Below the pieces are notes generated by a model. The model ran no database searches. It had not been told where the DNA came from and saw only the letters and a list, made by a program, of their open reading frames with translations. DNA of 64,000 nucleotides from an uncultured virus (IMG/VR IMGVR_UViG_2911005044_000001) (taxonomy: Duplodnaviria > Heunggongvirae > Uroviricota > Caudoviricetes). Positions 3,641 to 19,468 of the stretch are shown here, one piece after another (position 1 is the stretch's first letter; the number at the start of each line of letters is the position of its first letter). The position numbers were made by a program, and so were the translations under genes. The stretch is taken from the IMG/VR virus record IMGVR_UViG_2911005044_000001; one strand, written 5' to 3'.

Positions 3641-3767
3641 ATCCTTTTACAGACTCTTTACTTTTCTTGTATCTCAAGAATAGGTCGGAACTTATTTTTA
3701 CAGCGCTTAATAGTATAAACGCTCCAAAAATATAGTTCAATGTATTATTTCCTTTATCTACGTTCAT
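3621..3767 (-). CDS. 48-aa single-TM protein ending in GCGCGKK (absent from ORF track)
   Basis: Manual translation MNVDKGNNTLNYIFGAFILLSAVKISSDLFLRYKKSKESVKGCGCGKK; fills the operon gap and overlaps both neighbours. Confidence 0.7.
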   Translation of the reverse strand: MNVDKGNNTLNYIFGAFILLSAVKISSDLFLRYKKSKESVKGCGCGKK

Positions 3768-4086
3768 TGCTTTTTTGCTTATTAAAAATTTGAATTTCTT
3801 CTTCTAACTGCTCGATATACTTTTCAAGATCAGTGATACGATCTCGTTGTTTAGTTATCGTTTTATTCATCAAGGTATTCTTGCTCTCCAGTTGTTTTAA
3901 ACGCTTTTCCATATTCTCAGACCATAGCTTATAGTTTTCCACTACAAGACTATTGGCCTGGACGTTTAGGTTACGTATTTCCGCACTTTTAAGACGTCTT
4001 TGCGTCCCATATTGCAATAGCACTTCAATGAGTTTCCAAAACCCAGTAGCACCCAGTACAATTGCAAGTATTTTGATTAAATCCAT
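3754..4086 (-). CDS. N-terminal TM plus coiled-coil protein (holin/lysis accessory-like)
   Basis: ILAIVLGATGFWKLI followed by heptad-rich coil; next to M15 peptidase. Confidence 0.5.
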   Translation of the reverse strand: MDLIKILAIVLGATGFWKLIEVLLQYGTQRRLKSAEIRNLNVQANSLVVENYKLWSENMEKRLKQLESKNTLMNKTITKQRDRITDLEKYIEQLEEEIQIFNKQKSNERR

Positions 4087-4128
4087 TACTTTTTAGATTA
4101 CGCTTTCGCGAAAGCATCATTATTTTTA

Positions 4129-4662
4129 TTACAGCGTTTTAGAAACTCGTGTTCTTCTTACAATTACTGGCTCAGATTCTTCGATTTCATCTCTCTCGAT
4201 GACATCTGGAGGCAATACAAATATTCCACCTGAGAACGGTCTGAATTTCAGTGGAAGCTCAGCCACATAAGGGTTAACATTAAAGATGATTTCATCTTCT
4301 GGATCGTTAAAAATGCCACTTACAAATACACGACCGTCATCATCTATTGCATAGTAAAATGGTTTTCCTTGACGGCTCAAAAGTGTTCCTGTATGCTCGC
4401 CTTGTTGGTTTTTGTTGATTGGTGCTGGTAGACTCAACTGCCAGCCCGCAATTTCCTTTCTTCCAGATCTGGAGCGCAATCTAATGTCTTTGCCAATGAC
4501 GATATTCTCGTTAATCACTGCATAAATATTACGTCCAGGTGAGTGCAACATATCTGCATTTAATTGATTAGATGGCACACTCAGCTCACGCTGAGTGTTT
4601 GCTATTAATCCGCCACCTTGTGTTTTGATTATTACATTACTTTGATATCCTACTATACTCAT
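4129..4662 (-). CDS. Hypothetical beta-rich protein, possibly a virion fibre/minor component
   Basis: 177-aa ORF coupled within the operon; beta-strand-like pattern. Confidence 0.45.
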   Translation of the reverse strand: MSIVGYQSNVIIKTQGGGLIANTQRELSVPSNQLNADMLHSPGRNIYAVINENIVIGKDIRLRSRSGRKEIAGWQLSLPAPINKNQQGEHTGTLLSRQGKPFYYAIDDDGRVFVSGIFNDPEDEIIFNVNPYVAELPLKFRPFSGGIFVLPPDVIERDEIEESEPVIVRRTRVSKTL

Positions 4663-5081
4663 TATTGTGCTATTATTATTCCGGTTAGTATGAGTAAGCC
4701 TCCGCCAAAAAACCAGCGCTCCAGCTTACCTCTTTTTATTTGTTTGTGCTGTCTTTTAATGGTCAAGTTCAGCTCTTGAATATGTGACTCATCATTATCT
4801 TGAATGATAACAAGGTTTTCAACTTTACGCTCCAACTTAACTATGATCGTATCCTTTTTTTGAGTGAGATACTGCCATCTATAGTTCCGTAATTGCAGCG
4901 TGTCTATAATACTATCTTGGTAAACACTGAACTCTAATCGCTTTGCCAGATACTTGGATTGTGACAAATCAAAACAGAAGTATTTTTTACTCTTTATATC
5001 TTGTACTATCGGCTGTAAATCCTGAGAAATACTCATACAAGTCCAGAGCAGACATCCTATCAATAGTATTAATTTTTTCAT
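4662..5081 (-). CDS. Signal peptide, coiled coil and C-terminal TM protein (spanin-like)
   Basis: MKKLILLIGCLLWTCMSISQ start, coiled coil, WFFGGGLLILTGIIIAQ end; overlaps upstream gene by ~95 bp. Confidence 0.5.
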   Translation of the reverse strand: MKKLILLIGCLLWTCMSISQDLQPIVQDIKSKKYFCFDLSQSKYLAKRLEFSVYQDSIIDTLQLRNYRWQYLTQKKDTIIVKLERKVENLVIIQDNDESHIQELNLTIKRQHKQIKRGKLERWFFGGGLLILTGIIIAQ

Positions 5082-5337
5082 CCAGTGCATTTTGTAAATT
5101 TTCTATCGTTTTATGGCTTGAGACTATTTTACCAGTTAAGCTATCCGTTTGCTTTTTTAGCCTTTTTATTTCTTCATCAAGGGTTACATTCTCAATTGAG
5201 AGTAGTTCGTTTTCCTCTTCTAATTTCTGAATAGTGTCATTGTTCAAAGCTTCTTCGTGCGGAATGATGTAAAAGATGAGCAAGACAATAATCCCTGCAA
5301 TCCAAAGCACTAATAAAAAAGGTTTCCAAAACTTCAT
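4987..5337 (-). CDS. Type II membrane coiled-coil protein (i-spanin/Rz-like)
   Basis: N-terminal TM followed by long heptad coil. Confidence 0.5.
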   Translation of the reverse strand: MKFWKPFLLVLWIAGIIVLLIFYIIPHEEALNNDTIQKLEEENELLSIENVTLDEEIKRLKKQTDSLTGKIVSSHKTIENLQNALDEKINTIDRMSALDLYEYFSGFTADSTRYKE

Positions 5338-5660
5338 TACTCTTTGGGTTTCGTTTGAAATAGCTTGTTCAAAAACTTCTCTAATAAGAGTTTATGAAAG
5401 ACCAATGCAAAAGCAAAAGACTGTAATAAACACTCAATCATTTTTATTTGATAACCTCTCAAGAAAAACAGCGCAACGCCGTAAATAATGCCAATTATGA
5501 GCACACGATAACGAGTCGCAATTTTGAGCTTAAAGACTTCATAGAAAAAGTTGGTTGAGCGGTAATGATTAAGACCATAAGCAATCACTATAAAGGTGAG
5601 TATATAAGCCCAGTCCAGACTGTTTAAATAATTGGATATGTGTGCTAAAATTTCTATCAT
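5337..5660 (-). CDS. Three-TM membrane protein (holin-like)
   Basis: 107 aa, three hydrophobic segments, basic C-terminus, upstream of spanin-like pair. Confidence 0.5.
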   Translation of the reverse strand: MIEILAHISNYLNSLDWAYILTFIVIAYGLNHYRSTNFFYEVFKLKIATRYRVLIIGIIYGVALFFLRGYQIKMIECLLQSFAFALVFHKLLLEKFLNKLFQTKPKE

Positions 5661-5905
5661 TTTAATTGTGTTTTAAGGGTTGATTTTATGCTTTTAATAT
5701 CTGCTTGTAACGCTACTATTTGATGATTAGGAAATAGATTCTTAGTCAAATGTGCTACTAAAACTATGGTTGCTCCAGAAGCTAATAGCGCAAGAATTAT
5801 CTTGGTTAATGTTTGATTGGTAAGTGTGACTGTAACTTCTGTTTTGATACCATCTTTATCTACCAGACCGTCTATTAAATCTTTAATGCTTCTCTTTTCT
5901 GCCAT
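5657..5905 (-). CDS. Small single-TM protein (putative virion membrane protein)
   Basis: IILALLASGATIVLVA segment. Confidence 0.55.
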   Translation of the reverse strand: MAEKRSIKDLIDGLVDKDGIKTEVTVTLTNQTLTKIILALLASGATIVLVAHLTKNLFPNHQIVALQADIKSIKSTLKTQLK

Positions 5906-6386
5906 CTTTTTGTTGCTTTTTTATCTTACCCATTTTTCGTTCGTTAAATAGCTGTTCTGACACTTCTTTTACTTTGTAAAGTCTTAAAACACGTTCTTCA
6001 GTAATGGCATCAAACTCATCAGTAATTATGCCTTTTGCTGCTCCGTGATTTTTCAAGAGATACACACGTAGTTGATAGACGCGTTCTCCTTTGCTTCCTA
6101 ATTTTAAAGGGAAATCATCATTGGGTTCTGGCAGTACTTCGGGCTTATTGACAATTGCTTTCTTTTCTTTTTCTAAGGAAACAATAGGCTTTATTTCTAC
6201 AACAGGAATCACTTTTTTAACAGGTATTGGTTTATCTTCTTTTTCAGATTTTGATTCCTCAACAATGGTAAATTCAGCATCCTCAACAGTTTGTTCTTTA
6301 TCTCTAAAGAGGACGTAACCCAATAATCCTAATCCCAAAAGCCCACCAGCGATAAGTAATCCTTTTTGCATCGTTTGTTCGCTCAT
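5883..6386 (-). CDS. N-terminal TM plus PG_binding_1-like domain protein
   Basis: TM GLLIAGGLLGLGLLGYV; FPLKLGSKGERVYQLRVYL...DEFDAIT. Confidence 0.6.
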   Translation of the reverse strand: MSEQTMQKGLLIAGGLLGLGLLGYVLFRDKEQTVEDAEFTIVEESKSEKEDKPIPVKKVIPVVEIKPIVSLEKEKKAIVNKPEVLPEPNDDFPLKLGSKGERVYQLRVYLLKNHGAAKGIITDEFDAITEERVLRLYKVKEVSEQLFNERKMGKIKKQQKDGRKEKH

Positions 6387-6889
6387 TATTTCCCAAGACT
6401 TGACAGCGCTTTTCGCATTCCAGCGATATCGGCTTGTGTGAATACTGTTTTCTTTAATCGCTTTTGCGCAGCTCGTGAAGTTTTAGGTCCAAATTGTCCA
6501 TCCACACCATCTCGTTTTGGTCCCGTTTTACCTAAATCTTCTTTGTAGATTTTCAGGTAACGCTGTAATATTTTCACATCAGGATGACGGCTTCCATATT
6601 TGATAGGATAGCCTGTTTTAGTAATAACTGGTTTCGTACTTGAACTTGATGATGTTGAAGAACTCGGAATAAAAGGTGGCGTTTGATAGCTGGATGAACT
6701 ACTTGGTACTGTTGTAATTCCTGACGAAGAAGCGCTCGCTAATGCAGCTTCTTTTTTCTCCTTTTTTTTGGTCATAAAATAATACGCGGTGGCTGCTCCT
6801 GCGAGTACCACGATAACACCACCTACCACTAAAAGGTCTTTGTTCTTAGCCATAAATGATGGATTTGTTGCTGTTGATTTCTGTTTCAT
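6386..6889 (-). CDS. N-terminal TM, Ser/Thr linker and peptidoglycan-binding (PG_binding_1) domain protein
   Basis: YPIKYGSRHPDVKILQRYL...DGVDGQFGPKTSRA. Confidence 0.7.
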   Translation of the reverse strand: MKQKSTATNPSFMAKNKDLLVVGGVIVVLAGAATAYYFMTKKKEKKEAALASASSSGITTVPSSSSSYQTPPFIPSSSTSSSSSTKPVITKTGYPIKYGSRHPDVKILQRYLKIYKEDLGKTGPKRDGVDGQFGPKTSRAAQKRLKKTVFTQADIAGMRKALSSLGK

Positions 6890-6898
6890 TGGTTCGAT

Positions 6899-7420
6899 TT
6901 ACGATTGATAATTAGGAAGGCGTTGCACATAATTTGAGACGTATTCCTTCATTTCACTTTGGCTTAAAAAGCTATTCAAGTGTTGCCACATATCTTTTTT
7001 GTAGAGTTGATAATATGCTTTAGAAAGACTGGCGATTTGCGTTTTATCACGCAACTTTTTACCAAAAACATCTTTGATGGCCTCTTCATCATCATTAAAA
7101 GTGCCTTTCGCATCCTTAATGATTTTAGCCAGTTTCTTAGCCGAGGCATCGTCCAGTACTTGAATGCTTTTGGGCGCTACCCATTTCTGAACGTCAGTTA
7201 GGTAGTTCATATCAAATGGACTGTTCCAGTTCGGCTCTTGTTTGGTCGTTCCTACGTTTCCAGTAGTGACTTGCACGCCAGTTCCAACAGATGCGGTTGT
7301 TGTGGATTTAAGTGCTTGTTGCTTTGTACGCTTTCGCGAAAGCGTAACAAAAACACCTATCCCGATAACGCCAAGTCCCGCGCCACCTATCATCCACCAT
7401 CCTGTTTTTGAGATTTCCAT
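6899..7420 (-). CDS. N-terminal TM plus annexin-repeat-like helical domain
   Basis: AKIIKDAKGTFNDDEEAIKDVF..TQIASLSKAYYQLYKKDMWQHL. Confidence 0.55.
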   Translation of the reverse strand: MEISKTGWWMIGGAGLGVIGIGVFVTLSRKRTKQQALKSTTTASVGTGVQVTTGNVGTTKQEPNWNSPFDMNYLTDVQKWVAPKSIQVLDDASAKKLAKIIKDAKGTFNDDEEAIKDVFGKKLRDKTQIASLSKAYYQLYKKDMWQHLNSFLSQSEMKEYVSNYVQRLPNYQS

Positions 7421-7421
7421 A

Positions 7422-7910
7422 TTAAGCTGTTCTGTAATTAGGTAGCGCCTTCACGATGTTGAGCACTATGGTTATTTCTTCCTTGTCAAAGCGGTCTTTG
7501 AGCGTGTCAATTAGGTTTTTTGAATAGGTTTCTTGGTAGGCTTTTGCTACTTGTGACACCTGAACTTTATCTTTCATCTTGCGGAAGACTCCGTAGACTT
7601 GTTCTTCATCATCGCCACCTTGATACCAGCTTCCCCAAGCTTTGTGAATCTGGTCTGCATAGCGAGAAGCCGTACTTGTTTTTACTACCAATACTTCGCG
7701 ATTTACGGTCTGTAACACCTTATTCAAAAAATGAATATCAAAAGCATTTTGCGAGGTCAGTCCACTTGAAATTGGTTGAATTTGTGCTTGAATAGCAGTC
7801 AGTAATTTGCTGGTGCGTAAGTCACGACTACGCTTTCTCATTGAGAAAAACGTGGTTCCTATAAAGAGTGTTCCCACACTGGCGCCTATAATTTTATACG
7901 TCATACTCAT
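7422..7910 (-). CDS. N-terminal TM plus annexin-repeat-like domain; paralog of 6899..7420
   Basis: ADQIHKAWG..GDDEEQVYGVF..VQVSQVAKAYQETYSKNLIDTL; both proteins end LPNY. Confidence 0.55.
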   Translation of the reverse strand: MSMTYKIIGASVGTLFIGTTFFSMRKRSRDLRTSKLLTAIQAQIQPISSGLTSQNAFDIHFLNKVLQTVNREVLVVKTSTASRYADQIHKAWGSWYQGGDDEEQVYGVFRKMKDKVQVSQVAKAYQETYSKNLIDTLKDRFDKEEITIVLNIVKALPNYRTA

Positions 7911-8353
7911 TTGCCCAACAATTTTAAGCCACGACCTGCAGGTGTGAGCATTGCTAAATCTGATACATCCGCATTTTTTGCTGAATTTTTAAGAAGTACG
8001 ATAACTCCAACCAACACAACTGCAAGTATCACAGGCACTCCAATCGATAATACTTTCGTCAAACTTTTTCCCAAGCCAAAAATATTTCCACGTATCTCAG
8101 ATAAATCGGCAATTGTTCTGGTTGCCATATTGGAAACATCAAGGTTGTTTTGATGGAGCCATTTGTTAAAGTTGGGACTCGTCGTACAAGTTGCTGAACC
8201 ATTAGATTTCCAAGTAATGAGCCATATCATTTTTGCATTCTCTTGACCTAATTCGCTTTTCAATTTGGCGAAATAGCTTGTCCAGAAATCACACGGATCG
8301 TCTGCTTCTGGAACTAAAAAAATGCGGTTATCTATGTTTACTTGTATAGCCAT
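7907..8353 (-). CDS. Hypothetical protein with C-terminal TM (putative virion membrane protein)
   Basis: IGVPVILAVVLVGVIVLL; coupled in operon. Confidence 0.55.
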   Translation of the reverse strand: MAIQVNIDNRIFLVPEADDPCDFWTSYFAKLKSELGQENAKMIWLITWKSNGSATCTTSPNFNKWLHQNNLDVSNMATRTIADLSEIRGNIFGLGKSLTKVLSIGVPVILAVVLVGVIVLLKNSAKNADVSDLAMLTPAGRGLKLLGK

Positions 8354-8541
8354 TAATTACTTCTGAAAATGGTATTACTGTGTTTTTTGCTATCGGTTTT
8401 ACTGAAATCGTTCTTTTCTAAAAATTGCTGAAGGCGAGCTTTGAGTTGCGCTTCTTTTTTTAAAGCGGTGCGCTTATCGTAATTGATATATAGCTGCCTG
8501 CCCAACCAAAAACCAACACCTAATGTCAAAATCGTTTTCAT
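8353..8541 (-). CDS. Small membrane-associated protein
   Basis: 62 aa, hydrophobic N-terminus, abuts both neighbours. Confidence 0.5.
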   Translation of the reverse strand: MKTILTLGVGFWLGRQLYINYDKRTALKKEAQLKARLQQFLEKNDFSKTDSKKHSNTIFRSN

Positions 8542-9036
8542 CTACTTTCTCTTATAAATATTATGCTCGGGAATGTCTAATTCTCTGAGCCATTCTGCTA
8601 CTTCAAATCCTGGACTATCTTCATCTGCTTTGGTAGGGATTTCATTAAAACCTGCAATAATGATGTCTGGAAAGCGCAGTATATAGAACTTTACAATCGC
8701 TTCAAGTGCCGCTTTTTGTTCATCGGTACGCGTGTCTTTGTCCCAAGCTTCCTTGAGTGTTCTGCCACCTACATAAGCAATGTGTTTGGCAATTCCCGTG
8801 ATACCGTTTTGACCGTGAGAGATTCCCCATAAATCTGTAGTTGTTGGGCTTTCTTCACTTATGATGGTTTGTAAAACACCATCTTGAAGTACGAGGTAAT
8901 CAATGCCTGGACGATTCCAACCAAAGCCGCCTTTATCTTTAGGAAGCGTATGTTGATTGATAATAATTTCCTTACCGAAGTCTTTCGCTTCGCTGGTGTC
9001 GGTACTTTGTATAATGAGATAATCTACTTTTTGCAT
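8542..9036 (-). CDS. T7-lysozyme-like N-acetylmuramoyl-L-alanine amidase fold, Zn ligands substituted (probably inactive)
   Basis: LIIQST, GW..PG.DYLV..DG, IAYVGG, RTDEQK.AL, IAGFNE, DSPGFEV align with Amidase_2 motifs. Confidence 0.7.
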   Translation of the reverse strand: MQKVDYLIIQSTDTSEAKDFGKEIIINQHTLPKDKGGFGWNRPGIDYLVLQDGVLQTIISEESPTTTDLWGISHGQNGITGIAKHIAYVGGRTLKEAWDKDTRTDEQKAALEAIVKFYILRFPDIIIAGFNEIPTKADEDSPGFEVAEWLRELDIPEHNIYKRK

Positions 9037-9046
9037 CTTCTGTGAT

Positions 9047-9484
9047 TTAAGAGTTTATAGCTGATAAGCGTCTAAAGCCTAATAAGCGATAGACAGGATA
9101 TATTTTGATGTTGACTTGATTTTTCTGATTACCACCCAAGACATAGATGTATTTTTTGTCTTCTGAATAGCTAATGAATAGACCTACGTGACCTTTCCAA
9201 CTGGCTTTTTTACTACGCCATAAGACGACCACATCGTTGAGTTTGGGTTCTTTGATTTCGGTACCAACTTGCAGCCAAGAACGAGCAGTGAGTTTGTTAG
9301 TTCGTTCTACTTTCGCCTTGAGTGCTACCCAATTGATAAACGCAGAACACCACGCAGTTTCATCGGTTGTGACCCAAGTGTGTCCTATTTCTTTGAAGTA
9401 ATTTAGAACAATGGGATTGTGCTCTTTGCCTACAATTTCGGTTACACCGTATTGGCTTAAGGCTATATTAATAAGTTGACTCAT
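9047..9484 (-). CDS. TIGR02594-family NlpC/P60-like cell-wall peptidase
   Basis: DETAWCSAFINW, ARSWL, GHVG, VLGGNQ. Confidence 0.85.
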   Translation of the reverse strand: MSQLINIALSQYGVTEIVGKEHNPIVLNYFKEIGHTWVTTDETAWCSAFINWVALKAKVERTNKLTARSWLQVGTEIKEPKLNDVVVLWRSKKASWKGHVGLFISYSEDKKYIYVLGGNQKNQVNIKIYPVYRLLGFRRLSAINS

Positions 9485-11057
9485 TAGGTGGCTCGTCTTT
9501 AGGGTTATCGAGCCACGATACTGGAATGCCCTTACTCATTTGGACACCAGTAGATATTCTTGATTTTTCGGGAAGCATATTATACATCTCGATTTGATTG
9601 TAATAAATTAGAAAAGTCACTTGCTGGAACGGATTAATTTTAAAACACCACGTCACGTGTCCATCTATTAAGTTTCCATCAAAGTCAAATACTTCTGACA
9701 CGTTAGCAAAGTTTTGAGGACTCTGACTATTACTCAACGAGATGGTTTTACAGATTTCGGTACCAGTGACGGACTTTTCTGTAATCTGTAGTGCATTGAT
9801 GCGGTCTTCTCCAGAAGCAACCAGCTTGACGTGACCAACCATTGCAGGATTATGCTGGAAGTCTTCACGATCTTCATAATATTCTTCGTTTACTGTTACG
9901 GTAGGACCTGATTGTAATCCCGAAATGCCAACTGTATCATCTGCAGAGTTGCTCACGCCTATAATATCTTCCTTAGAACTAATTGCTAACCCAAGTCCAA
10001 AACTTTCAGTTTTAATAGTATCTATTACTTGATGCTTTGGGCTAATTCTACTAAACGTTTGATCGCCTCGATTCCCTACGTACATCAATCCATTATGCGG
10101 ATTATAAGCAATAGCCACAGGATCTTTTCCAACACTTAATTTAGTGATGGCTCCAAATCTTACGGTGTCTAAAACCGAAACAGAATTTGAATTATTCAGT
10201 ACCATATACATATTCTTGGTCACTGGATGGAATTGAAACGAAACAATATCTGCCACCACAGAACCTACGCTTCCTTTTTGATTGCCTTGAAGATCATATA
10301 CATTGATGGCACCATCCACTATATTATGAATGTATAAATCGCCTGAGTCGGTATCAACCCCAAGTGTTCTTGCTCCAGGTACTAAAGGCAGGTTATTTAC
10401 TCTACGATTGATGCAAATTTTAGAGATTGTCCCTGAAACTAAATTTGCTGTATAGTAACATTGATCCACAGGATTGTAAACGATATCTACTGGGCGATTA
10501 CCAACAGCTTCTCTTCTTAAAATTGAAAAATCTCTATTGATAAAAACGACTTCGTTTGAAACTGAACAAGCTACCGCAACTACTCCGTATTCAACACTAT
10601 TAGCAGATGTATTTACCGCTAAAGCAACTGGACTGATACTACCTGGAACGCTTAAAATTGTCGGATTGACAGCTCTTCTTTCGCCAATTCCAGATCCACT
10701 ATCAGTCTGAGAATTACCTTGCAACAAGTCAATTGTAGTGACAAGTTCTCCTGAAGGATTAACCACCGAGACAGAATCGCCTAATTGATTCACTACATAA
10801 AATAAGTCTGTAACAACATTATAGACCAGCTCTTGTGGTTGCTTATCTACGATTACACTTTTTATTCCTTCTTCATTTATAAACATTGGGTCAGTAAGAG
10901 GTGTGCAAGCAATCGCACCCCAAAGACATACTTTTCTAATATCCTTCGTATGGTTTGTAACCGTTACTTGTACAACATCATTCTCTTTTTGAAGTTGTGC
11001 GTAGAAACGTTTTAAACTTGCCTGCTTGTCTAACCAAGTATATATTGCTCTACTCAT
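9468..11057 (-). CDS. Capsid-like jelly-roll paralog with inserted YncE/YVTN beta-propeller (candidate spike/vertex protein)
   Basis: Repeats such as VGNRPVDIVYNP and VGKDPVAIAYNP..MYVGN; flanking segments match 14424..15335 (shared SPQNF). Confidence 0.6.
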   Translation of the reverse strand: MSRAIYTWLDKQASLKRFYAQLQKENDVVQVTVTNHTKDIRKVCLWGAIACTPLTDPMFINEEGIKSVIVDKQPQELVYNVVTDLFYVVNQLGDSVSVVNPSGELVTTIDLLQGNSQTDSGSGIGERRAVNPTILSVPGSISPVALAVNTSANSVEYGVVAVACSVSNEVVFINRDFSILRREAVGNRPVDIVYNPVDQCYYTANLVSGTISKICINRRVNNLPLVPGARTLGVDTDSGDLYIHNIVDGAINVYDLQGNQKGSVGSVVADIVSFQFHPVTKNMYMVLNNSNSVSVLDTVRFGAITKLSVGKDPVAIAYNPHNGLMYVGNRGDQTFSRISPKHQVIDTIKTESFGLGLAISSKEDIIGVSNSADDTVGISGLQSGPTVTVNEEYYEDREDFQHNPAMVGHVKLVASGEDRINALQITEKSVTGTEICKTISLSNSQSPQNFANVSEVFDFDGNLIDGHVTWCFKINPFQQVTFLIYYNQIEMYNMLPEKSRISTGVQMSKGIPVSWLDNPKDEPPNESTY

Positions 11058-11808
11058 TGGCTCTATAATTTTCTATAAAATTGATAATATCTTTGGTACG
11101 CTCAATTTGTGAAGCACCGACTATTTCTGGATTTTTACCAAACACTTTTGTTACTGCATACACGGCTTCAATGGTGGGAAAACCATAATCGAGGTATTGT
11201 TTCATACCGCATAAATCTGCGGTAGTTTGACTGCGTGTATTTAAGAACCAATGACAGCCTTCGTGTGCCAAAATCGCCACACGAATAGGAATCGTATAAG
11301 ACTTAAACAAACGTTGAGAAATCTGTACTCTCGGCATTTTTCGATGCGTTCTCGCAGGTGTGATAAGCTCTGCGCCAAAAGGATCTGTAATCTTATCTAA
11401 ATATTGAAACAGAAATTCGTTGTCGGTGCTTTCATAAAAACCAGGAGGTACATATCCTGCTTTTTGCGCAAACTGAATTGCAAATTCTAAGAAACGATGT
11501 TGGTCGTCAGTCGCCCAAACCGCAAGTGCTGGCATTTTTTCAATTTTCACATTGACGATTTCAAAAGCATCGTCATCTGAGTGGTTTTTATCAAAGACTT
11601 CCATTTCCAGTACTTCTGGAGAGACTGGCAATGCGATCACAAATTCTCGTTTTGAGTTCGCTTTCGCGAAAGCGGCTTTTCTCCTAAAATAATAGCTGTT
11701 AGGATGCTCAGGATCATACACACGAATTCCCAACTCAAAAGGCATCAAAGCCATAATGGTCAGTTTTATCTGAAAGCGTTCTCTATTTGATGGTATGGTT
11801 GTTATCAC
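11050..11808 (-). CDS. Zincin-like metalloprotease (HExxH), candidate virion maturation protease
   Basis: AILAHEGCHWFLN..QTTAD; M48-like spacing, but the third ligand position appears to be Q. Confidence 0.6.
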   Translation of the reverse strand: MITTIPSNRERFQIKLTIMALMPFELGIRVYDPEHPNSYYFRRKAAFAKANSKREFVIALPVSPEVLEMEVFDKNHSDDDAFEIVNVKIEKMPALAVWATDDQHRFLEFAIQFAQKAGYVPPGFYESTDNEFLFQYLDKITDPFGAELITPARTHRKMPRVQISQRLFKSYTIPIRVAILAHEGCHWFLNTRSQTTADLCGMKQYLDYGFPTIEAVYAVTKVFGKNPEIVGASQIERTKDIINFIENYRANE

Positions 11809-12278
11809 TGAGGAGAGTGTTGGTATTGCTTATTTTTAGAACTACTCATTACCGCAAGTCCAATCACTCCGACAACTACGACGCCACCCAAAACATAAAC
11901 GATGGTAGGAATCCCTTTTTTCTCTTCTTCTGGAACTTCTGGAGCTCCTAAGTCTACAGAGAAGTCTGAAGGCAGTTCTGTGTTAGTGCCATATCCATCT
12001 AAAGGTTTTGGTGTAGTAAACGAATCGATTACTTGACCTATCGCTGTAGCGCCTCCAGCTTCTTTATAAATCTGTCCTACATCTTTAAAGAACTTTGTGC
12101 GCTTTGCTTTGCGCTCTATTCGTTTTGGAGCAGATCTTCTTACCGTTCTTCTGGCGACACGTTTTGCTTTTCGCTTGGCACGTCTTGCTTTACGTTTCTT
12201 TTTATTTCCAAAAAAGTCATCGTAATCCTCATCTTGTAGATGGCGACTTAAAATGCTTTCTGTTTCTCCTAAAATCAT
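11805..12278 (-). CDS. Basic core-like protein: DEDYDDFFG motif, Arg/Lys tract, C-terminal TM
   Basis: Direct reading of translation. Confidence 0.6.
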   Translation of the reverse strand: MILGETESILSRHLQDEDYDDFFGNKKKRKARRAKRKAKRVARRTVRRSAPKRIERKAKRTKFFKDVGQIYKEAGGATAIGQVIDSFTTPKPLDGYGTNTELPSDFSVDLGAPEVPEEEKKGIPTIVYVLGGVVVVGVIGLAVMSSSKNKQYQHSPQ

Positions 12279-12287
12279 AAATGGGTA

Positions 12288-12515
12288 TTAGATAATTTGC
12301 ATTATTCTTAAGGTCGAGGCTCCAGGATCGTAGGTGATTTTCTTATAACCTTTACCCACAAAAGGATAACCCTTTGCTTCGCCTGGAAATAAAACCACTC
12401 CATTAACCAAAGCTTTTCCTTCTCCGACGTTTTTAATTGAGGCACTCAAAAACCCATCACTGATTTCTCCTGAGACCGTGGTGTCTATTTCATTTACTTG
12501 TGCTAATATGTCCAT
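12288..12515 (-). CDS. Small beta-rich hypothetical protein (75 aa)
   Basis: Likely start MDILAQ at 12515, overlapping the end of the upstream gene. Confidence 0.55.
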   Translation of the reverse strand: MDILAQVNEIDTTVSGEISDGFLSASIKNVGEGKALVNGVVLFPGEAKGYPFVGKGYKKITYDPGASTLRIMQII

Positions 12516-13050
12516 TTTGTAATTTTTTGTTTTGAATGAATTTATAAATCCCAAATCCTGTTACACCTGCAACTCCCACGACAGCAATTACTTTAACCAC
12601 TTTGCTCACCTTACTGTCAGACTTCATTGTCTTTTTACTGGCTTCTACTTGGTTAGCTTGAAGTTGTTTGACTTCGGCTTTTGCAATAGCAGATAATGGT
12701 GTTTTGACAACCGCAGGACTTAATTTTTTAATCAAGTGGCTTATGGGTGTCTTTACTTTGACTGGTGGTTTTTTAGTTTTGATGACCGCTTTTTTCGGTT
12801 GTACCGTTTTCTTACGAATCACAGGAATGGTTTTGACTCGAATAGGCGGTAATTTCATAGGACGACCACGAACTACTCTGGGACGACTTCTTACAGGTGG
12901 TCTGCTTAATTTTGGTTTAGAAGACCGTCTGCGTTTTAAAAGTTTTCGCGTACGGCGTTTCTTTCTGCTACGACGACGTCTGCCTCCGAAGTTATCGTAG
13001 TCTTCGTCCTGATAAACATCATAATCTGTAAGTGCGTAGGTGTTTGTCAT
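12490..13050 (-). CDS. Highly basic core/DNA-condensing-like protein: DEDYDNFGG motif, Arg tract, C-terminal TM
   Basis: GGRRRRSRKKRR..; VIAVVGVAGVTGFGIY. Confidence 0.6.
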   Translation of the reverse strand: MTNTYALTDYDVYQDEDYDNFGGRRRRSRKKRRTRKLLKRRRSSKPKLSRPPVRSRPRVVRGRPMKLPPIRVKTIPVIRKKTVQPKKAVIKTKKPPVKVKTPISHLIKKLSPAVVKTPLSAIAKAEVKQLQANQVEASKKTMKSDSKVSKVVKVIAVVGVAGVTGFGIYKFIQNKKLQNGHISTSK

Positions 13051-13051
13051 T

Positions 13052-13690
13052 TTATCTCGGCATTGGCACCGGTGGCTGTCCGTAAGGCATTGGTGGACGT
13101 CCCGATTTCATTAATACTACCGCTCCGATACCTAAGACGACCACACCGCCACCTATCATTAGCATCATATTGGTTTTCTTTTTGGCAGCTTCGGCTTTCT
13201 TCTTTTCTTCCTCACGACGACGCGCTTCCTCTTGTCTGCGTCTTTCTTCTGCCTCACGACGTTTGCGTTCTTGCTCTTCGCGCATACGCTGCATACGCAT
13301 TTCCATATCTCTTTTAGCCGCAGCAGCCTGGGCAGATGCTCTTGCTTGTGCAGTTGCTTGAGCTGCGCCATTATTAGATGAACCTCCACGTTTCTTTTTC
13401 TTAAAGAGTCCACCTATAATGCCTACAGCACCTTTGGCAATCGCTCCCCAAAATTGATCGTTCTCTTGTGATGAGAATCGAGCGATTAAATTTTCTAACG
13501 CTTTCGCGAAAGCGTAATCTCCATCTTTTAATAGGTCAACCACCTCATTTACGAGTTGCTCTTTTGATGGTTTACCTTGAAAGAACACATTGCTTTTAGC
13601 AAGTAATTCTTGAACAGGTTTTGGATAATTGAGAACCAAATAAGTAAGGTTGTCAATCGCCTGATTATATTGTGATTGTTTATTTGACAT
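13052..13690 (-). CDS. Putative virion protein: helical N-domain, ENDQFWG motif, charged coil, C-terminal TM
   Basis: Translation; N-domain resembles that of 13680..14321. Confidence 0.6.
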   Translation of the reverse strand: MSNKQSQYNQAIDNLTYLVLNYPKPVQELLAKSNVFFQGKPSKEQLVNEVVDLLKDGDYAFAKALENLIARFSSQENDQFWGAIAKGAVGIIGGLFKKKKRGGSSNNGAAQATAQARASAQAAAAKRDMEMRMQRMREEQERKRREAEERRRQEEARRREEEKKKAEAAKKKTNMMLMIGGGVVVLGIGAVVLMKSGRPPMPYGQPPVPMPR

Positions 13691-14321
13691 TGCTAAAATT
13701 GAATTTTAAACCGTGTCCGACCAATGCGCCTGCAATGAAAACCACTCCAAAAAGTAGGAGTTCATCTTTAGTCACGCTGAAGGTTTTATGCGGTTGTGGT
13801 TTAGGTTCTTCTTCTTTTTTCTTTGCTTCTTTACGAATGCGCACTTCGTTCCAAACCATTTGCACTTCCTGCGCAAGATTCTTGTCATCTGCTTGAGCGT
13901 TAGATCGTTTTACGATGGTTTGGTAATAGCGTTCTAAGTCCTTGTCAGAATAGCTCTCAAACTGGTTAAGAAAACTGACTTCATCGCCTGTCCCTGAATA
14001 ATTAGAATGCCCACAAGCTTTGCAGAAATTACTTTCTGTATTATAAGAGTCGTTGCTGCAAGCACCACAAAAGTTGTCTTCTTTGGGTTGGCTAAGCTTT
14101 AAAATGGCCTGCTTATCGGGATGTAATTGTATGAGCTCTTTAATAACTTTACGCCCTTTTTTACGGGCAAGTTCTTTTATAGCTTCTGCGAGGTGTTTAG
14201 GATCTTCGGGCGCTTCAAAACCATACTCAAATAACAATTTTGACACATCATCTGTATTGTGATAGACGATATAATCGATTCTATTTTGAGCTAGTGAAGG
14301 TGTTTGTTTTGAGTTTTTCAT
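13680..14321 (-). CDS. Putative virion protein: helical N-domain, EDNFCG motif with CxxC/CxxC knuckle, C-terminal TM
   Basis: FCGAC...FCKAC; LLLFGVVFIAGALVG. Confidence 0.6.
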   Translation of the reverse strand: MKNSKQTPSLAQNRIDYIVYHNTDDVSKLLFEYGFEAPEDPKHLAEAIKELARKKGRKVIKELIQLHPDKQAILKLSQPKEDNFCGACSNDSYNTESNFCKACGHSNYSGTGDEVSFLNQFESYSDKDLERYYQTIVKRSNAQADDKNLAQEVQMVWNEVRIRKEAKKKEEEPKPQPHKTFSVTKDELLLFGVVFIAGALVGHGLKFNFSNVK

Positions 14322-14337
14322 CTTGTTTTCAATAAGA

Positions 14338-14380
14338 ACAGCCAGAGTTTATGGTTTAGGGGAAAACCGACTCTGGCTGT
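14338..14380. terminator. Hairpin downstream of capsid-like gene (partial terminator or processing stem)
   Basis: ACAGCCAGAGT...ACTCTGGCTGT 11-bp stem with inner GGTTT/AAACC pairing. Confidence 0.4.
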
Positions 14381-14423
14381 CTGGTATTAGGTACAAAGTC
14401 TGGACGAGTTCCTTATTACAGGA

Positions 14424-15335
14424 CTATCGTCTACGACGTCTTACCAATCGAGAAACTGGACGTCTCGCCACCGGTTTTCTGACTAGTCTACGACGTTTTA
14501 CAACTCTACGAGTAGGACGTCTCACCACTCTACGTCTAGGACGCACACCTAATGCTGTCGGTCTTTTTCTTCGGATTAAATCCAACTGTGGAAGCCCAGT
14601 GGTACGTGGTGCTCTTGAAAGCTCTGCCACGTTAGTGCCTTTTAAAAGGTTACCCAGATTTGCTCTCGCTTTAATCGTAAATGTGAATACTGCCGTCACA
14701 CCATCTTCTACAGATACACGCAGGGAATCCTGACCTGTAACATCCATCTCGAAGTTGTCATCGTCAATGAGTTGTTGGGTAAAGTTTTGAGGCGAGGTCG
14801 CATTACGTGGTTGATACACTCTGGTCGTTTTAGATCCGGAAGCGGTTCTACGATCTATACGTAGCACATTATCAAATTGCAGTGCGTTACTCACAGAGTA
14901 TTTCATTCCCGCAATCTTGAACGGATTTGATTTACTCTCTTCACGTACTTCCTTATGGCTGGACTCTTCAATCTCAACGGTTAATCCGTTAGGCTGAGCA
15001 GCTTCTGCATTACCACCAAAGATGACTGCCTCTGCACGAGCACCAGACTTGTTAGTCACGACTACCGTAAGGGTTCTGTCGTTAGGATCTATTTTTCCAA
15101 TGCTCGATTTTGTATAATCATCATAGGCATCATCGTCGTACTCGCCTTCATCAGCGTAGTCGTCGTAATCATCATATTCATCTTCGTACTCTTCGTCGTA
15201 ACCATCTTCTAAACCTTCAAATCCAGTATCGAAGTCGTCTTCTTCATCGTCGTACATCTCGTCGTTATCGTAGTCGTCATACTGATCTTCAGCAGCTTCC
15301 TCGTAACGCATTAATTCGTCGTTATAATCTTTCAT
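14424..15335 (-). CDS. Candidate major capsid protein (single jelly-roll core, acidic N-arm, Arg-rich C-tail)
   Basis: ~140-aa all-beta core between a ~75-aa D/E/Y tract and an RRRVVRRP tail; heads the structural operon near the packaging ATPase. Confidence 0.55.
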   Translation of the reverse strand: MKDYNDELMRYEEAAEDQYDDYDNDEMYDDEEDDFDTGFEGLEDGYDEEYEDEYDDYDDYADEGEYDDDAYDDYTKSSIGKIDPNDRTLTVVVTNKSGARAEAVIFGGNAEAAQPNGLTVEIEESSHKEVREESKSNPFKIAGMKYSVSNALQFDNVLRIDRRTASGSKTTRVYQPRNATSPQNFTQQLIDDDNFEMDVTGQDSLRVSVEDGVTAVFTFTIKARANLGNLLKGTNVAELSRAPRTTGLPQLDLIRRKRPTALGVRPRRRVVRRPTRRVVKRRRLVRKPVARRPVSRLVRRRRR

Positions 15336-15408
15336 TTGTTTTCATTGTTTGCCTGTTCAAAAAACAGGATGATACTTTTGTTTTGGTGTCCAAAAGTGTC
15401 TCTAAACA

Positions 15409-15579
15409 CTATTTTTTAGTTGGACTTGCAGTTACTGGTTTCTTTGCTTCAGCTAATTTTTTAGCTTTCATTTTTTGCATCATCGGAGCAATTAAAAAAG
15501 TTCCTAATGCGATTCCAGCGACGCCTGCTCCCACACAATACAGAATTGGTGTCCAGGCGATGTCGTTCTTGTTTGCCAT
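15409..15579 (-). CDS. Small single-TM protein (56 aa)
   Basis: Likely start MANKND; ILYCVGAGVAGIALGTFLI; basic tail. Confidence 0.6.
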   Translation of the reverse strand: MANKNDIAWTPILYCVGAGVAGIALGTFLIAPMMQKMKAKKLAEAKKPVTASPTKK

Positions 15580-15731
15580 TCGTTTAATTATTGATTGATT
15601 TCGTTTTGAATTACTTGGCGAGGTCTCTAAACCTTGATTGACTGCGAAGTTGAGAATGAATGGTAGTTTTTCCGCTGTCGCGAAAGGGACTTTGGGACGG
15701 AGGAAGAAATAATTATATTGCTGATTGTAAT

Positions 15732-16697
15732 ATGGATAATAGTATCTCAAAAAAGAAAATCATCTACCTCGACCAATTTGCTGTAAGTGAAATGATGGAT
15801 AGAAATTCTAATGTTGAATGGAAAGAGATAAAAAAATTATTATTGAAAGCTTACAAAGCTGGTAAAATCGTATGCCCAACTTCTTCTGAGCATCTTATTG
15901 AAACAGTACCTAAAGGTTTTTTAGACGCTTCAGATCACGATGGGTTTTTGAGTAGCCTATCTGATGGTTTAACATATAAGTCCGAATTGCTTGTTGTTAC
16001 TCAACTTATTTCAAGTAGACTAAGAAAAAACAATAAGACACTTAATACTTTTTTTCATTTCAATACAAAAGAAGTGTTGTCAAATAAAAAGACGTACGAT
16101 GAACTTTTTACTCATAATATTCAGAGCAAAGAGTTAATGAATTTCGGTGTTAATGACGTTAATCAAATAAGAAAAGCGGTTGGCAGCAATAGAGTTGATC
16201 CTAAAACTAAAAGAACTTTATATTTATTAACCAAAAAACTTACCATTGATAAATTCATAGAACGTTTAGACGATTTGTTAAAAAAAGGGCAAACCGTTTT
16301 AAGGGGAGACCAAATGGGCAATACTAAAATCCCCAATTGGATTGATTCGATAATATGGAGACTTTTAAATGTTCATAAATTCAAAAAAAAGGATATCATC
16401 CATCTAAAAGCCCAATTGAAGAGAACAGGTTTTGATAGTATTCCTACTTTAGATATTCGACACTCCTTAAAAGCTTTGATTTCACTTTATAACAAGACTG
16501 AAGATTTCGGAGACCAAATTGATATATCCAGAATTTCAACAGGATTGCCAATTTCAGATGTTTTGTTTACAGATAAAAAGCGCAAATCTGAAATAATTGA
16601 ATTAGAGTTAGATGTAAAGTATAAAACAAAAGTCCTTTCAGGACAACATCAAGATTTTTGTCTTTTTATAGATTATCTAAAAAAAGAAATAAATTAA
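15732..16697 (+). CDS. PIN-like domain protein, opposite-strand cargo gene
   Basis: IIYLDQ..E..E ... DQIDISR..LP.SDVLFTD acidic pattern; AT-rich; antisense to the operon. Confidence 0.5.
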   Translation: MDNSISKKKIIYLDQFAVSEMMDRNSNVEWKEIKKLLLKAYKAGKIVCPTSSEHLIETVPKGFLDASDHDGFLSSLSDGLTYKSELLVVTQLISSRLRKNNKTLNTFFHFNTKEVLSNKKTYDELFTHNIQSKELMNFGVNDVNQIRKAVGSNRVDPKTKRTLYLLTKKLTIDKFIERLDDLLKKGQTVLRGDQMGNTKIPNWIDSIIWRLLNVHKFKKKDIIHLKAQLKRTGFDSIPTLDIRHSLKALISLYNKTEDFGDQIDISRISTGLPISDVLFTDKKRKSEIIELELDVKYKTKVLSGQHQDFCLFIDYLKKEIN

Positions 16698-16698
16698 T

Positions 16699-17628
16699 CT
16701 AAATTGGACTACTCAACCCATCCTCGTGATAACGTAACTTTTCAGAAATCATTTTTACAATAGCCTCGTTCTTAGTTTTGTAAATGTTATTTCCATCAAA
16801 ATCCTGTTCGTTTAAAAGCATCTTTACTTTTCTGCTTTCTTCCTGATCGATGAACTTTTTACAAGCTCTTATAAATGCAGCACGACTGCAACCTTTAATG
16901 CGTTGCTCTCGCATATTCACGTACACAAAAAAACTCTTCTGGATTTTATATTCAAGCTCAGTAATCTTACCCATTGCAAAGGCATTAGAACATAATTCAT
17001 ACTGCTCATCTACGATAAGCTGACCTATGCGTACCATTTGATATTTAGGAATACGCTCTCTATAGCGAGTGACATCATCCACTTGATGATGTAAGCGCAA
17101 CCACGTACAGTTTTGCCATTCAGAGGTTGTGATTTTTGCTACAGATTGGTGTGTAAGCACAATATCAATCCCTTTATGACGCACTGTACAAAGTGCACCA
17201 ATCATAGACTGTCCTTTTGCACCTGTCATATAATGGTCAATATCGTCTAGGACTACGAGACCATTTTTATAGTGTTTCATAATCTTAGTAATGACTTCTT
17301 TCTTTTCGTCATTATCCATAGGCGAACCATCACTATTAAATGGTCTAATTCTGCGTGAAGATACTTTGGTAAGTGCTTTTAAATGATTTGGGCTTACGGT
17401 TCTGAATTGTGGGTAATCATCATCATTAGTGTCAAAAGCTAAAACTTTGCGACCTTTCTTTCCTATCACTAAATGATCCATCATATAGTGTTTGATCTCT
17501 TGTTTGTTGCGATAGGTTTTACCAACACCAGTTTCTCCACAAACCAGCATAATCATCGGTTGGCGCTCTAAATCTTCTTTCTTATAGCTTATAGGCTTAC
17601 GACCTCGATTAGATGTAGTTCCTGACAT
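16699..17628 (-). CDS. FtsK-HerA superfamily packaging ATPase (A32/PRD1 P9/Zot-like)
   Basis: Walker A GETGVGKT, Walker B LVVLDD, Arg-finger/sensor motif RHKGIDIVLTHQ. Confidence 0.75.
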   Translation of the reverse strand: MSGTTSNRGRKPISYKKEDLERQPMIMLVCGETGVGKTYRNKQEIKHYMMDHLVIGKKGRKVLAFDTNDDDYPQFRTVSPNHLKALTKVSSRRIRPFNSDGSPMDNDEKKEVITKIMKHYKNGLVVLDDIDHYMTGAKGQSMIGALCTVRHKGIDIVLTHQSVAKITTSEWQNCTWLRLHHQVDDVTRYRERIPKYQMVRIGQLIVDEQYELCSNAFAMGKITELEYKIQKSFFVYVNMREQRIKGCSRAAFIRACKKFIDQEESRKVKMLLNEQDFDGNNIYKTKNEAIVKMISEKLRYHEDGLSSPI

Positions 17629-18650
17629 TACGAATTGTTTTGTGGTTCTTCGGCAACATCTATGATGGGAATATCATCATCGACTTCTTCGACTTCTATA
17701 TCTTGAATGGTAGGTTCTGGTTTAATTTCTTTTTCTTTAAATGGCTTTTGTTCTGGTTGCGCTTTAACGCTGCGCTCTCCCTGCGGTCGTGAATCTCGCA
17801 CGCTCGATTTCGCGAAAGCGTAATCAGAACTATCTGTATCGTCCTTATTTTCATCTTCCTCCTTAATATCTTCAATTTCTGTTTCTCCTTTTTCCTGACG
17901 AACGATGTCCAGAATGCGATTTTCAAGTAGACTGTTTTCGGCACGTACTTCCATAACGACTTGTGCCTTTTTCATTAAAATAGAAATAACCGCACCCATT
18001 AATTGCTGTTCTGGCGTAAGCTTTTTAGCTTTCTTACGCAGGACTTGAGCGAGTAATGGCCTTAAGAGCGCTTGATCTTCTTTATCAAGCTTGATACGCT
18101 CAACATTTTTATCATTCTGCTGATCTACAACTTGAATGATTTCTTCAAACTCATAGAACTCTTGATGCTTTCTGATTTTTACGAAATAACCACCGCCAAC
18201 TGCAAGAACATTGTTAGACATTCCCAATATCGCATCGGCTGCTTGATTTGCTTGTGCGAGCGGTACTTCAAAATCTTGGTCGGTTACGGTTTCATCAGCT
18301 TCGGTATCAAATCCGTTTCCGTTAATTTCTTGTTCTGGAGCATCAAGTGGTTCTTGGGCTTTTTCCTTTTCGACCTTAGCTTCAACCTTAGTTCTAAAAT
18401 CGGTTTGGGTGTTTCCACTGCGTCCAGGTTCTAGTTCATCAAGGGTTTTATGCTCTTGTTCTGGTTTCCAAACGTTCCAGCTTTTTTGTTTTTCTTCATC
18501 GGCTTCAACAGGACGCTCGCCACCTATGTCTTTTTCAATTACAGGTTGGTTAAGTGGACTACTATCTTCGTTTTGAAGTTGTTCAAAATTGATTTCTTCT
18601 GGAGTTGCGGTAAGGGCATCTTGTACCTCTTGAGCGATTTTGTCTTGCAT
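17628..18650 (-). CDS. Acidic hypothetical protein coupled to the packaging ATPase
   Basis: Stop/start overlap at 17628; acidic termini, helical core ending PEQQLMGAVISILM. Confidence 0.6.
   Translation of the reverse strand: MQDKIAQEVQDALTATPEEINFEQLQNEDSSPLNQPVIEKDIGGERPVEADEEKQKSWNVWKPEQEHKTLDELEPGRSGNTQTDFRTKVEAKVEKEKAQEPLDAPEQEINGNGFDTEADETVTDQDFEVPLAQANQAADAILGMSNNVLAVGGGYFVKIRKHQEFYEFEEIIQVVDQQNDKNVERIKLDKEDQALLRPLLAQVLRKKAKKLTPEQQLMGAVISILMKKAQVVMEVRAENSLLENRILDIVRQEKGETEIEDIKEEDENKDDTDSSDYAFAKSSVRDSRPQGERSVKAQPEQKPFKEKEIKPEPTIQDIEVEEVDDDIPIIDVAEEPQNNS
17766..17810. repeat. 45-bp in-frame GC-rich insertion splitting a CGCTTTCGCGAAAGCG palindrome
   Basis: CGCTTT[aacgctgcgctctccctgcggtcgtgaatctcgcacgctcgattt]CGCGAAAGCG; TTT at both junctions. 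Confidence 0.65.
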
Positions 18651-18654
18651 AGGC

Positions 18655-19107
18655 TTAGTTCAATTTTGCGATAAAATTGATAATGTTGTTTTCGAGGATT
18701 TTGAATTTTTCTACAAAAGGCTTGTAGAATTGAGGGATGGAAAGAATCTCATCGCACTTGTGGTAATTGTATAGTATGGCACGTTTGGACTGGCTAAAGC
18801 TTTCGCCAATCTTTGCATAACTAGAATCTGTATATTTTTTGAGTAAATAATAACAGGACATACGAGCCTCACGATACTCTTGAACGCTGCTGGTGTAGAA
18901 GTTTTCTTCTTTCAAATCAAAGACTTCAATGCTTCGTGAAATAATAAAAACCAGAAGAAGTTTTACTTTCTCCTTGTCTTGAGTGGTAAGCTCTGTATTG
19001 CTGGTTAAACTATCAATAACCTCAATGGTTTTCTGAAGTCCAAATTTTCCAATTAAGGAATCTATACTCTGCTGTAAATCGTGATAATCGTGTGCTGTCT
19101 TTTTCAT
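18655..19107 (-). CDS. DnaA C-terminal/TrpR-like HTH DNA-binding protein
   Basis: EARMSCYYLLKKYTDSSYAKIGESF..SKRAILY resembles Bac_DnaA_C; likely start MKKTAH. Confidence 0.6.
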   Translation of the reverse strand: MKKTAHDYHDLQQSIDSLIGKFGLQKTIEVIDSLTSNTELTTQDKEKVKLLLVFIISRSIEVFDLKEENFYTSSVQEYREARMSCYYLLKKYTDSSYAKIGESFSQSKRAILYNYHKCDEILSIPQFYKPFVEKFKILENNIINFIAKLN

Positions 19108-19207
19108 TGGGCAAGTGCCGAATTGTTTGACAGGCAAACTACTAAAAGTTGTTTTTCAATTTATTTACAAAAAGTTTATAGAAGATTTACTTTGATGTAA
19201 AATCTTT

Positions 19208-19465
19208 TTAATCAATTTTTTGCAGTATTTGATTTTTAGCTCTAAGGTATAATCTACCGTTCGTTTTCTTGCAAACTTTTACATTTTCAGCAATAAATTT
19301 AGTCCCAAGAGGATATTGTTCTCTAAATTTTTTAAGACACTCAATAACCATTGTAATTGGGACTTCTTGATTTGGTAATGGTCTTACACGAATTCTATTT
19401 GTTTCTTTATCTAAGAAAGATTCACACTTAATGTTGTCTATGTAATTACCGATTATTAAACTCAT
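19208..19465 (-). CDS. Small hypothetical protein, last gene of defence operon
   Basis: 85-aa ORF, 3 bp from PLD gene. Confidence 0.55.
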   Translation of the reverse strand: MSLIIGNYIDNIKCESFLDKETNRIRVRPLPNQEVPITMVIECLKKFREQYPLGTKFIAENVKVCKKTNGRLYLRAKNQILQKID

Positions 19466-19468
19466 TTT

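Follow-up and report, generated by a model that had tools for sequence, protein, structure and literature searches.

In the adenovirus penton base, a shell jelly-roll barrel carries a large domain spliced into a loop, and this inserted domain engages a cell-surface receptor. The vertex of PRD1 and PR772 combines the penton protein P31 with separate spike and receptor-binding proteins, and PM2 has the P1 spike. Jelly-roll vertex proteins with inserted domains are already known. In SPV1 (Portogloboviridae), one jelly-roll protein, VP4, forms the hexamers and a second, VP10, forms the pentamers (accessible part of PMC8459092). The penton protein VP9 of HCIV-1 has a membrane-directed N-terminal helix (accessible part of PMC6414509). 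Propeller-bearing phage receptor-binding proteins are known as well, and the host-recognition device of Staphylococcus aureus phage phi11 uses a beta-propeller for host recognition (accessible part of PMC4901313). Here, a 64,000-nucleotide (nt) stretch of DNA from an uncultured virus (IMG/VR record IMGVR_UViG_2911005044_000001), called the window throughout, was analysed. It contains an element of a marine flavobacterium that encodes a 303-amino-acid (aa) single jelly-roll protein, the candidate major capsid protein, and a 529-aa paralog in which a seven-bladed beta-propeller is predicted to interrupt one barrel loop. The 529-aa protein is referred to as the spike candidate.

The two proteins are related in split form. 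The sequence-only reading had held that the 529-aa protein aligns with the capsid candidate in two pieces around about 330 aa, and BLASTP, hhalign and a shuffle control agree with it. In a single BLASTP comparison, residues 384-450 of the 529-aa protein align with residues 117-185 of the 303-aa protein (20 of 69 positions identical, E 5e-6). Profile-profile comparison (44 versus 41 sequences) aligns residues 386-496 with 119-232 over 108 columns (probability 92%, E 6.4e-7). The N-terminal piece is recovered at the profile level only; BLASTP of the N-terminal 60 residues of the 529-aa protein against the 303-aa protein gave no match. In hmmsearch this piece alone is not significant (independent E 0.07-310 in four examples); the HMMER order is still colinear, with this piece at about HMM positions 45-78, the next at 82-208 and the split at ~75/82. 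When the first 57 spike-family columns were compared by hhalign with a broad capsid-family alignment, residues 22-52 aligned with 82-112 (E 2.6e-5, score 31.6), which reproduces exactly the VTVTN.../VVVTN... pair first picked out from the translations. None of 150 column shuffles reached a score of 31.6 (mean 9.7, maximum 16.3). According to these split profile alignments, the two pieces are contiguous in the capsid-family model and lie about 330 residues apart in the 529-aa protein.

Predicted structures agree with this arrangement. The AlphaFold2 (AF2) model of the 529-aa protein has a mean predicted local distance difference test (pLDDT) score of 83 (44 sequences), and the core of the 303-aa model has a pLDDT of 95-98 and 9 strands (108 sequences). 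The flanks of the 529-aa model have strands at residues 27-35, 41-45 and 387-389, a helix at 392-402, and then strands at 405-414, 422-428, 434-440, 453-456, 468-474 and 479-488. The 303-aa model has strands at 88-95, 101-104 and 118-122, a helix at 127-136, and then strands at 139-148, 158-163, 169-174, 189-199, 203-209 and 214-225. The secondary-structure elements of these independent models correspond one-to-one at the aligned positions. Near-invariant residues F106, Q153 and G167 of the broad capsid family align with W46, the Q in NALQ and the invariant G432 of the spike family. The SPQNF motif, another of the pairs listed earlier, is common to both families in the alignments. Searching viral and PDB libraries with the 529-aa model in Foldseek retrieved propellers only, which is uninformative on the barrel. 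As far as secondary structure and profile alignment go, the flanks form one domain like the capsid core. By sequence alignment and predicted structure, the 529-aa protein is confirmed as a paralog of the 303-aa protein with a propeller in one loop.

In the model, residues 59-385 of the 529-aa protein form 28 strands, equal to seven four-stranded blades. Residues 116-133 of the propeller make up a low-confidence, disordered variable loop that is also rich in insertions and deletions in the alignment. Foldseek matched the insert to YncE, YVTN and WDR5 propellers at E ~1e-14. The matches include Escherichia coli YncE (3vgz_A; root-mean-square deviation 3.4 over 357 columns, template modelling score 0.77 on the target) and the seven-bladed archaeal YVTN S-layer propeller 1l0q_A. 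The YVTN-type repeats noted earlier in the insert are, by model strands and Foldseek, a seven-bladed YncE/YVTN propeller. The 529-aa protein has 64 near-full-length homologs (27-98% identity). Some of the homologs have precomputed PF21783 or PF10282 matches (P0049, PF10282 at 26.0 bits with a cut-off of 21.7), and their source names, where present, are "YncE family", a database label that overlooks the flanking viral-type barrel. Many longer homologs are extended at the N terminus by a hydrophobic helix plus 100-200 aa of linker; given the analogous VP9 helix of the HCIV-1 penton, this extension is compatible with an anchor in the virion membrane.

The first ~80 residues of the 303-aa protein are rich in D, E and Y. 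The protein has 353 homologs at E<=1e-3, and the best 120 of the 353 are 62-100% identical to it. A profile search with its family against 1.84 billion representative proteins returned 236 clusters within the same cut-off, and most of these have lengths of 200-250 aa. ESM Atlas searches with this protein and with the 252-aa product of a neighbouring gene returned clusters without names, part of them labelled viral. Every one of the top VIA and Foldseek matches of the 303-aa model is a jelly roll, and Foldseek against the PDB gave no match at E<=1e-3. Nucleoplasmin cores, plant-virus coat proteins and viral coat or penton proteins have equal structural scores against this model. Neither the 303-aa nor the 529-aa protein was assigned to a family in a PHROGs scan. 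The 303-aa gene is the most conserved of its module and always follows the ATPase region. Because of the jelly-roll fold, this conservation and the detection of no other shell candidate, the 303-aa protein is taken as the capsid candidate, and we infer that it forms the shell.

The element was compared across related loci. A set of 185,579 species genomes yielded 92 relatives, and 80 of these loci were kept. Sequence of >=7 kb downstream of the capsid gene was available in 69 of the 80; the remaining 11 are too short to judge. In 65 of the 69, the capsid gene is followed 2.8-5.2 kb downstream by a spike-like gene. Across these 65 loci, identity to the window is 74-100% for the capsid core, 36-100% for the C-flank of the spike candidate, 19-100% for its N-flank and 21-96% for its insert. 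The spike candidate thus changes much faster in evolution than the capsid protein does. A shorter insert (187 aa) is present in 7 loci. A search for an insert-less spike-type barrel among proteins of <290 aa found none; 5 of 13 candidates matched, all of them C-terminal pieces and some probably truncated gene calls.

Two loci separate the insert from its surroundings most clearly. Locus L004 is identical to the window in the capsid core (100%) and close to it in the C-flank (94%) and N-flank (76%), and its insert is 21% identical. For L005 the values are 97%, 92%, 73% and 22%, in the same order. The flanking genes of both loci are 83-92% identical to the window at the DNA level by blastn, and window positions 9916-10915, which correspond to residues 48-381, have no blastn match. 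The replacement insert is still a propeller (propeller hidden Markov model [HMM] E about 1e-93). In these alignments, L004 and L005 carry a propeller cassette swapped at the domain borders. It had been suggested that variation of the insert among homologs be checked; the insert varies far more than the flanks, and the clean swap is part of that variation. Such turnover and cassette exchange are what one expects of a host-recognition domain.

The 303-aa protein is 100% identical in L001, L002, L003, L004 and L006, which carry four genus labels (Patiriisocius, Ulvibacter, Winogradskyella and Nonlabens). About 11 kb of DNA around the capsid gene is 91-93% identical in L001, L002, L003 and L006, and 84-91% identical, in interrupted segments, in L004. 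This points to recent spread across genera.

The explanation we favour, with moderate confidence, makes the 529-aa protein a structural component of the virion: a duplicated capsid barrel with an exchangeable host-recognition propeller, probably a vertex subunit. The single jelly-roll capsid gene of the element would have been duplicated, and a seven-bladed propeller would then have entered the loop that joins barrel strands two and three. The jelly-roll flanks would retain the contacts for a capsid-subunit position in the shell, most likely at the five-fold vertices. The propeller would serve as an exchangeable host-recognition module whose top face and disordered hypervariable loop contact a cell-surface receptor. 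The metallopeptidase-like 252-aa protein and two peptidoglycan hydrolases would belong to the same entry/exit gene block. A vertex position for the duplicated barrel has analogies in SPV1 VP10 versus VP4 and in HCIV-1 VP9. Five-fold placement is plausible, and we hold it with somewhat more doubt than belief. Like the shell role of the 303-aa protein, we infer the lattice position, outward orientation and receptor binding of the spike candidate.

Several findings weigh against this explanation. The spike gene is absent from 4 of the 69 loci (L055, L060, L075 and L080), which indicates that the protein is not a universally required penton, unless the capsid protein fills the five-folds there. 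Three of these loci (L055, L060 and L080) keep a homolog of the 252-aa protein followed directly by lysis or membrane genes, and L075 has an unrelated 422-aa protein in place of the spike gene. In Pfam the 529-aa protein falls under every propeller cut-off (PF25174, 17.6 bits versus 305). Placement of the 529-aa protein in the shell is predicted from sequence and single-chain models. With the first strand counted as B, the insert lies in the C-D loop, at the barrel end that holds both termini. In upright PRD1-type jelly rolls this end faces inward, to the membrane, so outward display would need a tangential or other orientation. Surface insertions in the tangential coat proteins of small viruses usually occur in the C-D, E-F and G-H loops. 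Structure 3vh0 of E. coli YncE, the closest named propeller, was according to its title solved with DNA, and a non-receptor ligand is therefore possible for the insert.

The last two points would also suit an alternative that we consider unlikely, in which the 529-aa protein is an off-lattice virion-associated or assembly protein with the barrel as adaptor to capsomers or membrane, or in which an inward-facing propeller has another ligand (for example nucleic acid, lipid, or a cell-wall polymer during exit). An insert at the terminus-bearing end of the barrel, as the canonical strand count suggests, and a DNA-bound member among YncE-type propellers are both compatible with it, as are the N-terminal membrane anchors of longer homologs and the grouping of the gene with those for two wall hydrolases and a metallopeptidase-like protein. 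In HHIV-2, jelly-roll spike proteins sit on top of the penton, not in it (accessible part of PMC6414509). However, the flanks are recognisable by the capsid-family profile, including the SPQNF loop, which suggests retained capsid-type contacts, and the cassette-like turnover seen in the insert is more in keeping with an exposed domain facing the host than with an internal one.

A slightly less probable alternative makes the 529-aa protein a second major capsid protein that forms mixed pseudo-hexameric capsomers with the 303-aa protein, in the manner of sphaerolipovirus VP4/VP7, so that the propeller would be a "tower" on each capsomer and not a vertex feature. Two jelly-roll paralogs do occur within one virion module, and HCIV-1 and HHIV-2 have heterodimers of two single jelly-roll capsid proteins, the taller with an extra domain (accessible part of PMC6414509). 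A metagenomic tandem fusion of two family barrels, P0319, demonstrates that two such barrels can function next to each other. Such a role would call for presence in every member, whereas the second paralog is missing from the four loci named above. Wholesale insert swaps and variability far above that of the capsid core would be unusual at hundreds of copies per shell, and by our own geometric estimate a ~330-aa propeller on alternate subunits would be crowded. It is very improbable that the 303-aa protein is a nucleoplasmin-like pentameric chaperone, built from an acidic tract and a jelly-roll core, that serves the very basic small proteins of the element, with an unrelated role for the 529-aa protein and icosahedral particles not required, because the element encodes a complete lysis cassette along with a packaging-type ATPase and has no other capsid candidate, the 303-aa protein has its own Arg-rich tail, its gene has the conservation and fixed position described above, and viral coat and penton proteins score as well as nucleoplasmin.

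Table 1. Positions of the spike candidate, the capsid candidate and associated features in the window
Feature	Positions	Strand	Basis or description
Conserved virion and lysis block	3106..19194	minus	blastn versus related loci; contig ends; Kordia colinearity
Spike candidate (529 aa), a split jelly roll carrying a propeller insert	9468..11057	minus	Open reading frame (ORF); homologs; AF2 model
529-aa N-flank, residues 1-57	10887..11057	minus	Helix 8-25 and jelly-roll strands 27-35, 41-45 (model; hhalign)
Inserted seven-bladed YncE/YVTN-type beta-propeller, residues ~58-385	9903..10886	minus	Model; Foldseek; DNA homology break
529-aa C-flank, residues 386-529	9468..9902	minus	Rest of jelly-roll strands and helix to ~490, then disordered tail
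303-aa single jelly-roll protein (major capsid protein candidate)	14424..15335	minus	Acidic N-region 1-80, core, Arg-rich C-tail 256-303
Conserved jelly-roll core of 303-aa protein, residues 82-253	14577..15092	minus	Invariant alignment columns; model
252-aa protein with HEGCH motif	11050..11808	minus	Stop overlaps 529-aa start by 8 nt
Two peptidoglycan hydrolase genes (145 aa, 164 aa), directly downstream of spike gene	8542..9484	minus	phrog_1259 E 5.4e-32; phrog_822 amidase E 8.9e-17
Packaging-type P-loop ATPase, 309 aa	16699..17628	minus	Pfam Zot 27.2 bits (cut-off 20.3), Pox_A32 23.0 (cut-off 22.8)

The features of the element are listed in Table 1. The two ends of the conserved block were seen in blastn comparisons and as loose contig ends in three sequencing runs. 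In run X17, joints supported by sides of just 20-26 letters were set aside as probable repeats or other organisms. In three libraries recorded as RNA, the region is on assembled contigs of 13-31 kb, which may be DNA carry-over. The adjacency of ATPase and jelly-roll genes is conserved in copies of the element in Kordia and in a distant element in genome G040. Between the ATPase and capsid genes, positions 15705-16706 form a variable slot whose content differs in related elements and metagenomic contigs. A 345-aa plus-strand ORF in this slot (15660-16697) has no family match.

The 252-aa protein has a beta-rich N-terminal third and a weak lead to a DUF4344 metallopeptidase (0.86). Its gene is translationally coupled to the spike gene, and the product is a possible alternative vertex or entry protein. 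On the other side of the spike gene, the start of the 145-aa hydrolase gene overlaps the 529-aa stop. The lysis genes encode an amidase, a lysozyme-like protein, an M15 endolysin, and proteins with holin-like and spanin-like matches. Also encoded in the block are further membrane proteins and several small proteins that combine basic stretches with a hydrophobic anchor at the C terminus. Several of the small hydrophobic-anchored proteins contain an acidic-aromatic motif, approximately (D/E)-Y-D-(D/N)-F, followed by a long Lys/Arg run (11805-12278 and 12490-13050 in the window; also in L055, L075 and L080), and a related Y/D/F stretch opens the capsid protein. This motif could act as a common signal for assembly or packaging, or could pair internally with the charge of the basic tails.

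No portal, terminase, HK97-type capsid or tail family was found among 40 proteins scanned against PHROGs. Pfam and PHROGs gave no candidate ORF for a double jelly-roll capsid protein, and two element proteins (529 aa and 303 aa) were folded. On gene content, the host element is a tailless, lysis-competent, phage-like element of marine Bacteroidota with a core of ~30 kb. Its virion is probably membrane-containing.

The second half of the element core extends from 45920 to ~61468. One complete Kordia genome (G001) contains three copies with a colinear core of ~30.7 kb. These copies are at contig positions 1553281, 1615553 and 2325205, and two of them, 62 kb apart, are 97% identical over 28 kb. 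The core shared with Kordia also encodes a methylase, a Strawberry-notch-type helicase, an AAA_5 ATPase and a DUF7192 protein. In the second core half, two genes at 49456-52727 (563 and 527 aa) have no family matches and no Kordia counterpart, and are probably further cargo. A 26.7-kb island (19195-45919) splits the core halves. It is absent from the three Kordia copies and encodes restriction-modification and other defence-type genes. Its products include a PLD-like protein, a UvrD-type helicase, an Hsp70-like protein, a 2OG-Fe(II) oxygenase, a type III restriction-modification pair, a Schlafen/AlbA protein, an SMC-like ATPase, and SNF2 plus DUF4391. Part of the island (19229-23736) recurs beside the related elements L006 and L009.

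The block is conserved in the same gene order in many marine Bacteroidota. Among 401 sampled genomes of the phylum, including the window's own, 2 had a match. The other matching genome, G040, carries a smaller element with a candidate integrase read from an ORF. A tblastn search of the capsid protein and the ATPase against 50,697 GenBank phage records gave no match, and neither did a capsid-family search of IMG/VR. Two jelly-roll paralogs are detectable per element, and one in some elements. The metagenomic protein P0319 (336 aa) is a tandem of two family barrels (independent E 4e-35 and 6.5e-21). In a second metagenomic protein, P0296 (603 aa), the barrel is split at HMM positions 117/120, between strands 4 and 5, by an insert of 328 aa that has neither a Pfam match nor a propeller-HMM match. 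By strand parity, the insertion sites of P0296 and the 529-aa protein would be on the same barrel end.

Literature searches, with subscription journals and supplements outside their scope, returned no description of the element family, including in the accessible part of PMC5894146, and no propeller nested in a capsid-protein loop or exchanged as a cassette. The element family appears to be undescribed in the searched literature. A wider and rather doubtful proposal is that it represents a lineage of unrecognised tailless phages of marine Bacteroidota, with one-barrel hexamers, a duplicated vertex copy, host range changed by propeller exchange, and at least two independent loop insertions. If so, the lineage, whose barrel family includes the tandem fusion P0319, would be an extant case of the single-barrel stage that has been proposed to precede double jelly-roll capsids. 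A widespread but sparse element family with a single jelly roll as its only capsid candidate would bear on double jelly-roll origin. If the favoured explanation of the spike candidate is correct, the protein would be a compact host-recognition device: duplication of a capsid barrel and nesting of an exchangeable propeller would let lattice contacts and receptor specificity evolve apart. The swap between elements with identical capsid proteins makes this separate evolution directly testable with natural variants.

Among known systems, the adenovirus penton base is similar in having a single shell jelly roll with a big in-loop domain, as proposed for the 529-aa protein. It differs in that it has no sequence or specific structural match to the 529-aa protein, whose insert is a predicted seven-bladed propeller. 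Adenovirus also uses other loops, whereas the 529-aa protein is interrupted between its second and third strands. E. coli YncE and the archaeal S-layer YVTN propeller (3vgz_A, 1l0q_A) have the same repeat type and seven blades, but they are free-standing or tandem domains of cellular proteins, and the 529-aa propeller is nested in a viral-type jelly roll. SPV1 and the sphaerolipoviruses (VP4/VP7/VP9) share single jelly-roll shells over an internal membrane and a separate single jelly-roll penton, as far as the accessible parts of the sources describe them. In the same sources HCIV-1 VP9 is similar in its helix, since the 529-aa model has a helix at residues 8-25 that immediately precedes the barrel. 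No sequence relation to the element is detectable in these archaeal or Thermus viruses, and their pentons carry separate spike proteins, whereas the 529-aa protein has an in-loop propeller. The propeller protein of phi11, as described in the accessible part of its source, is a tail baseplate protein on another scaffold with no capsid paralogy, in contrast to the 529-aa protein, whose propeller is set within a paralog of the capsid candidate.

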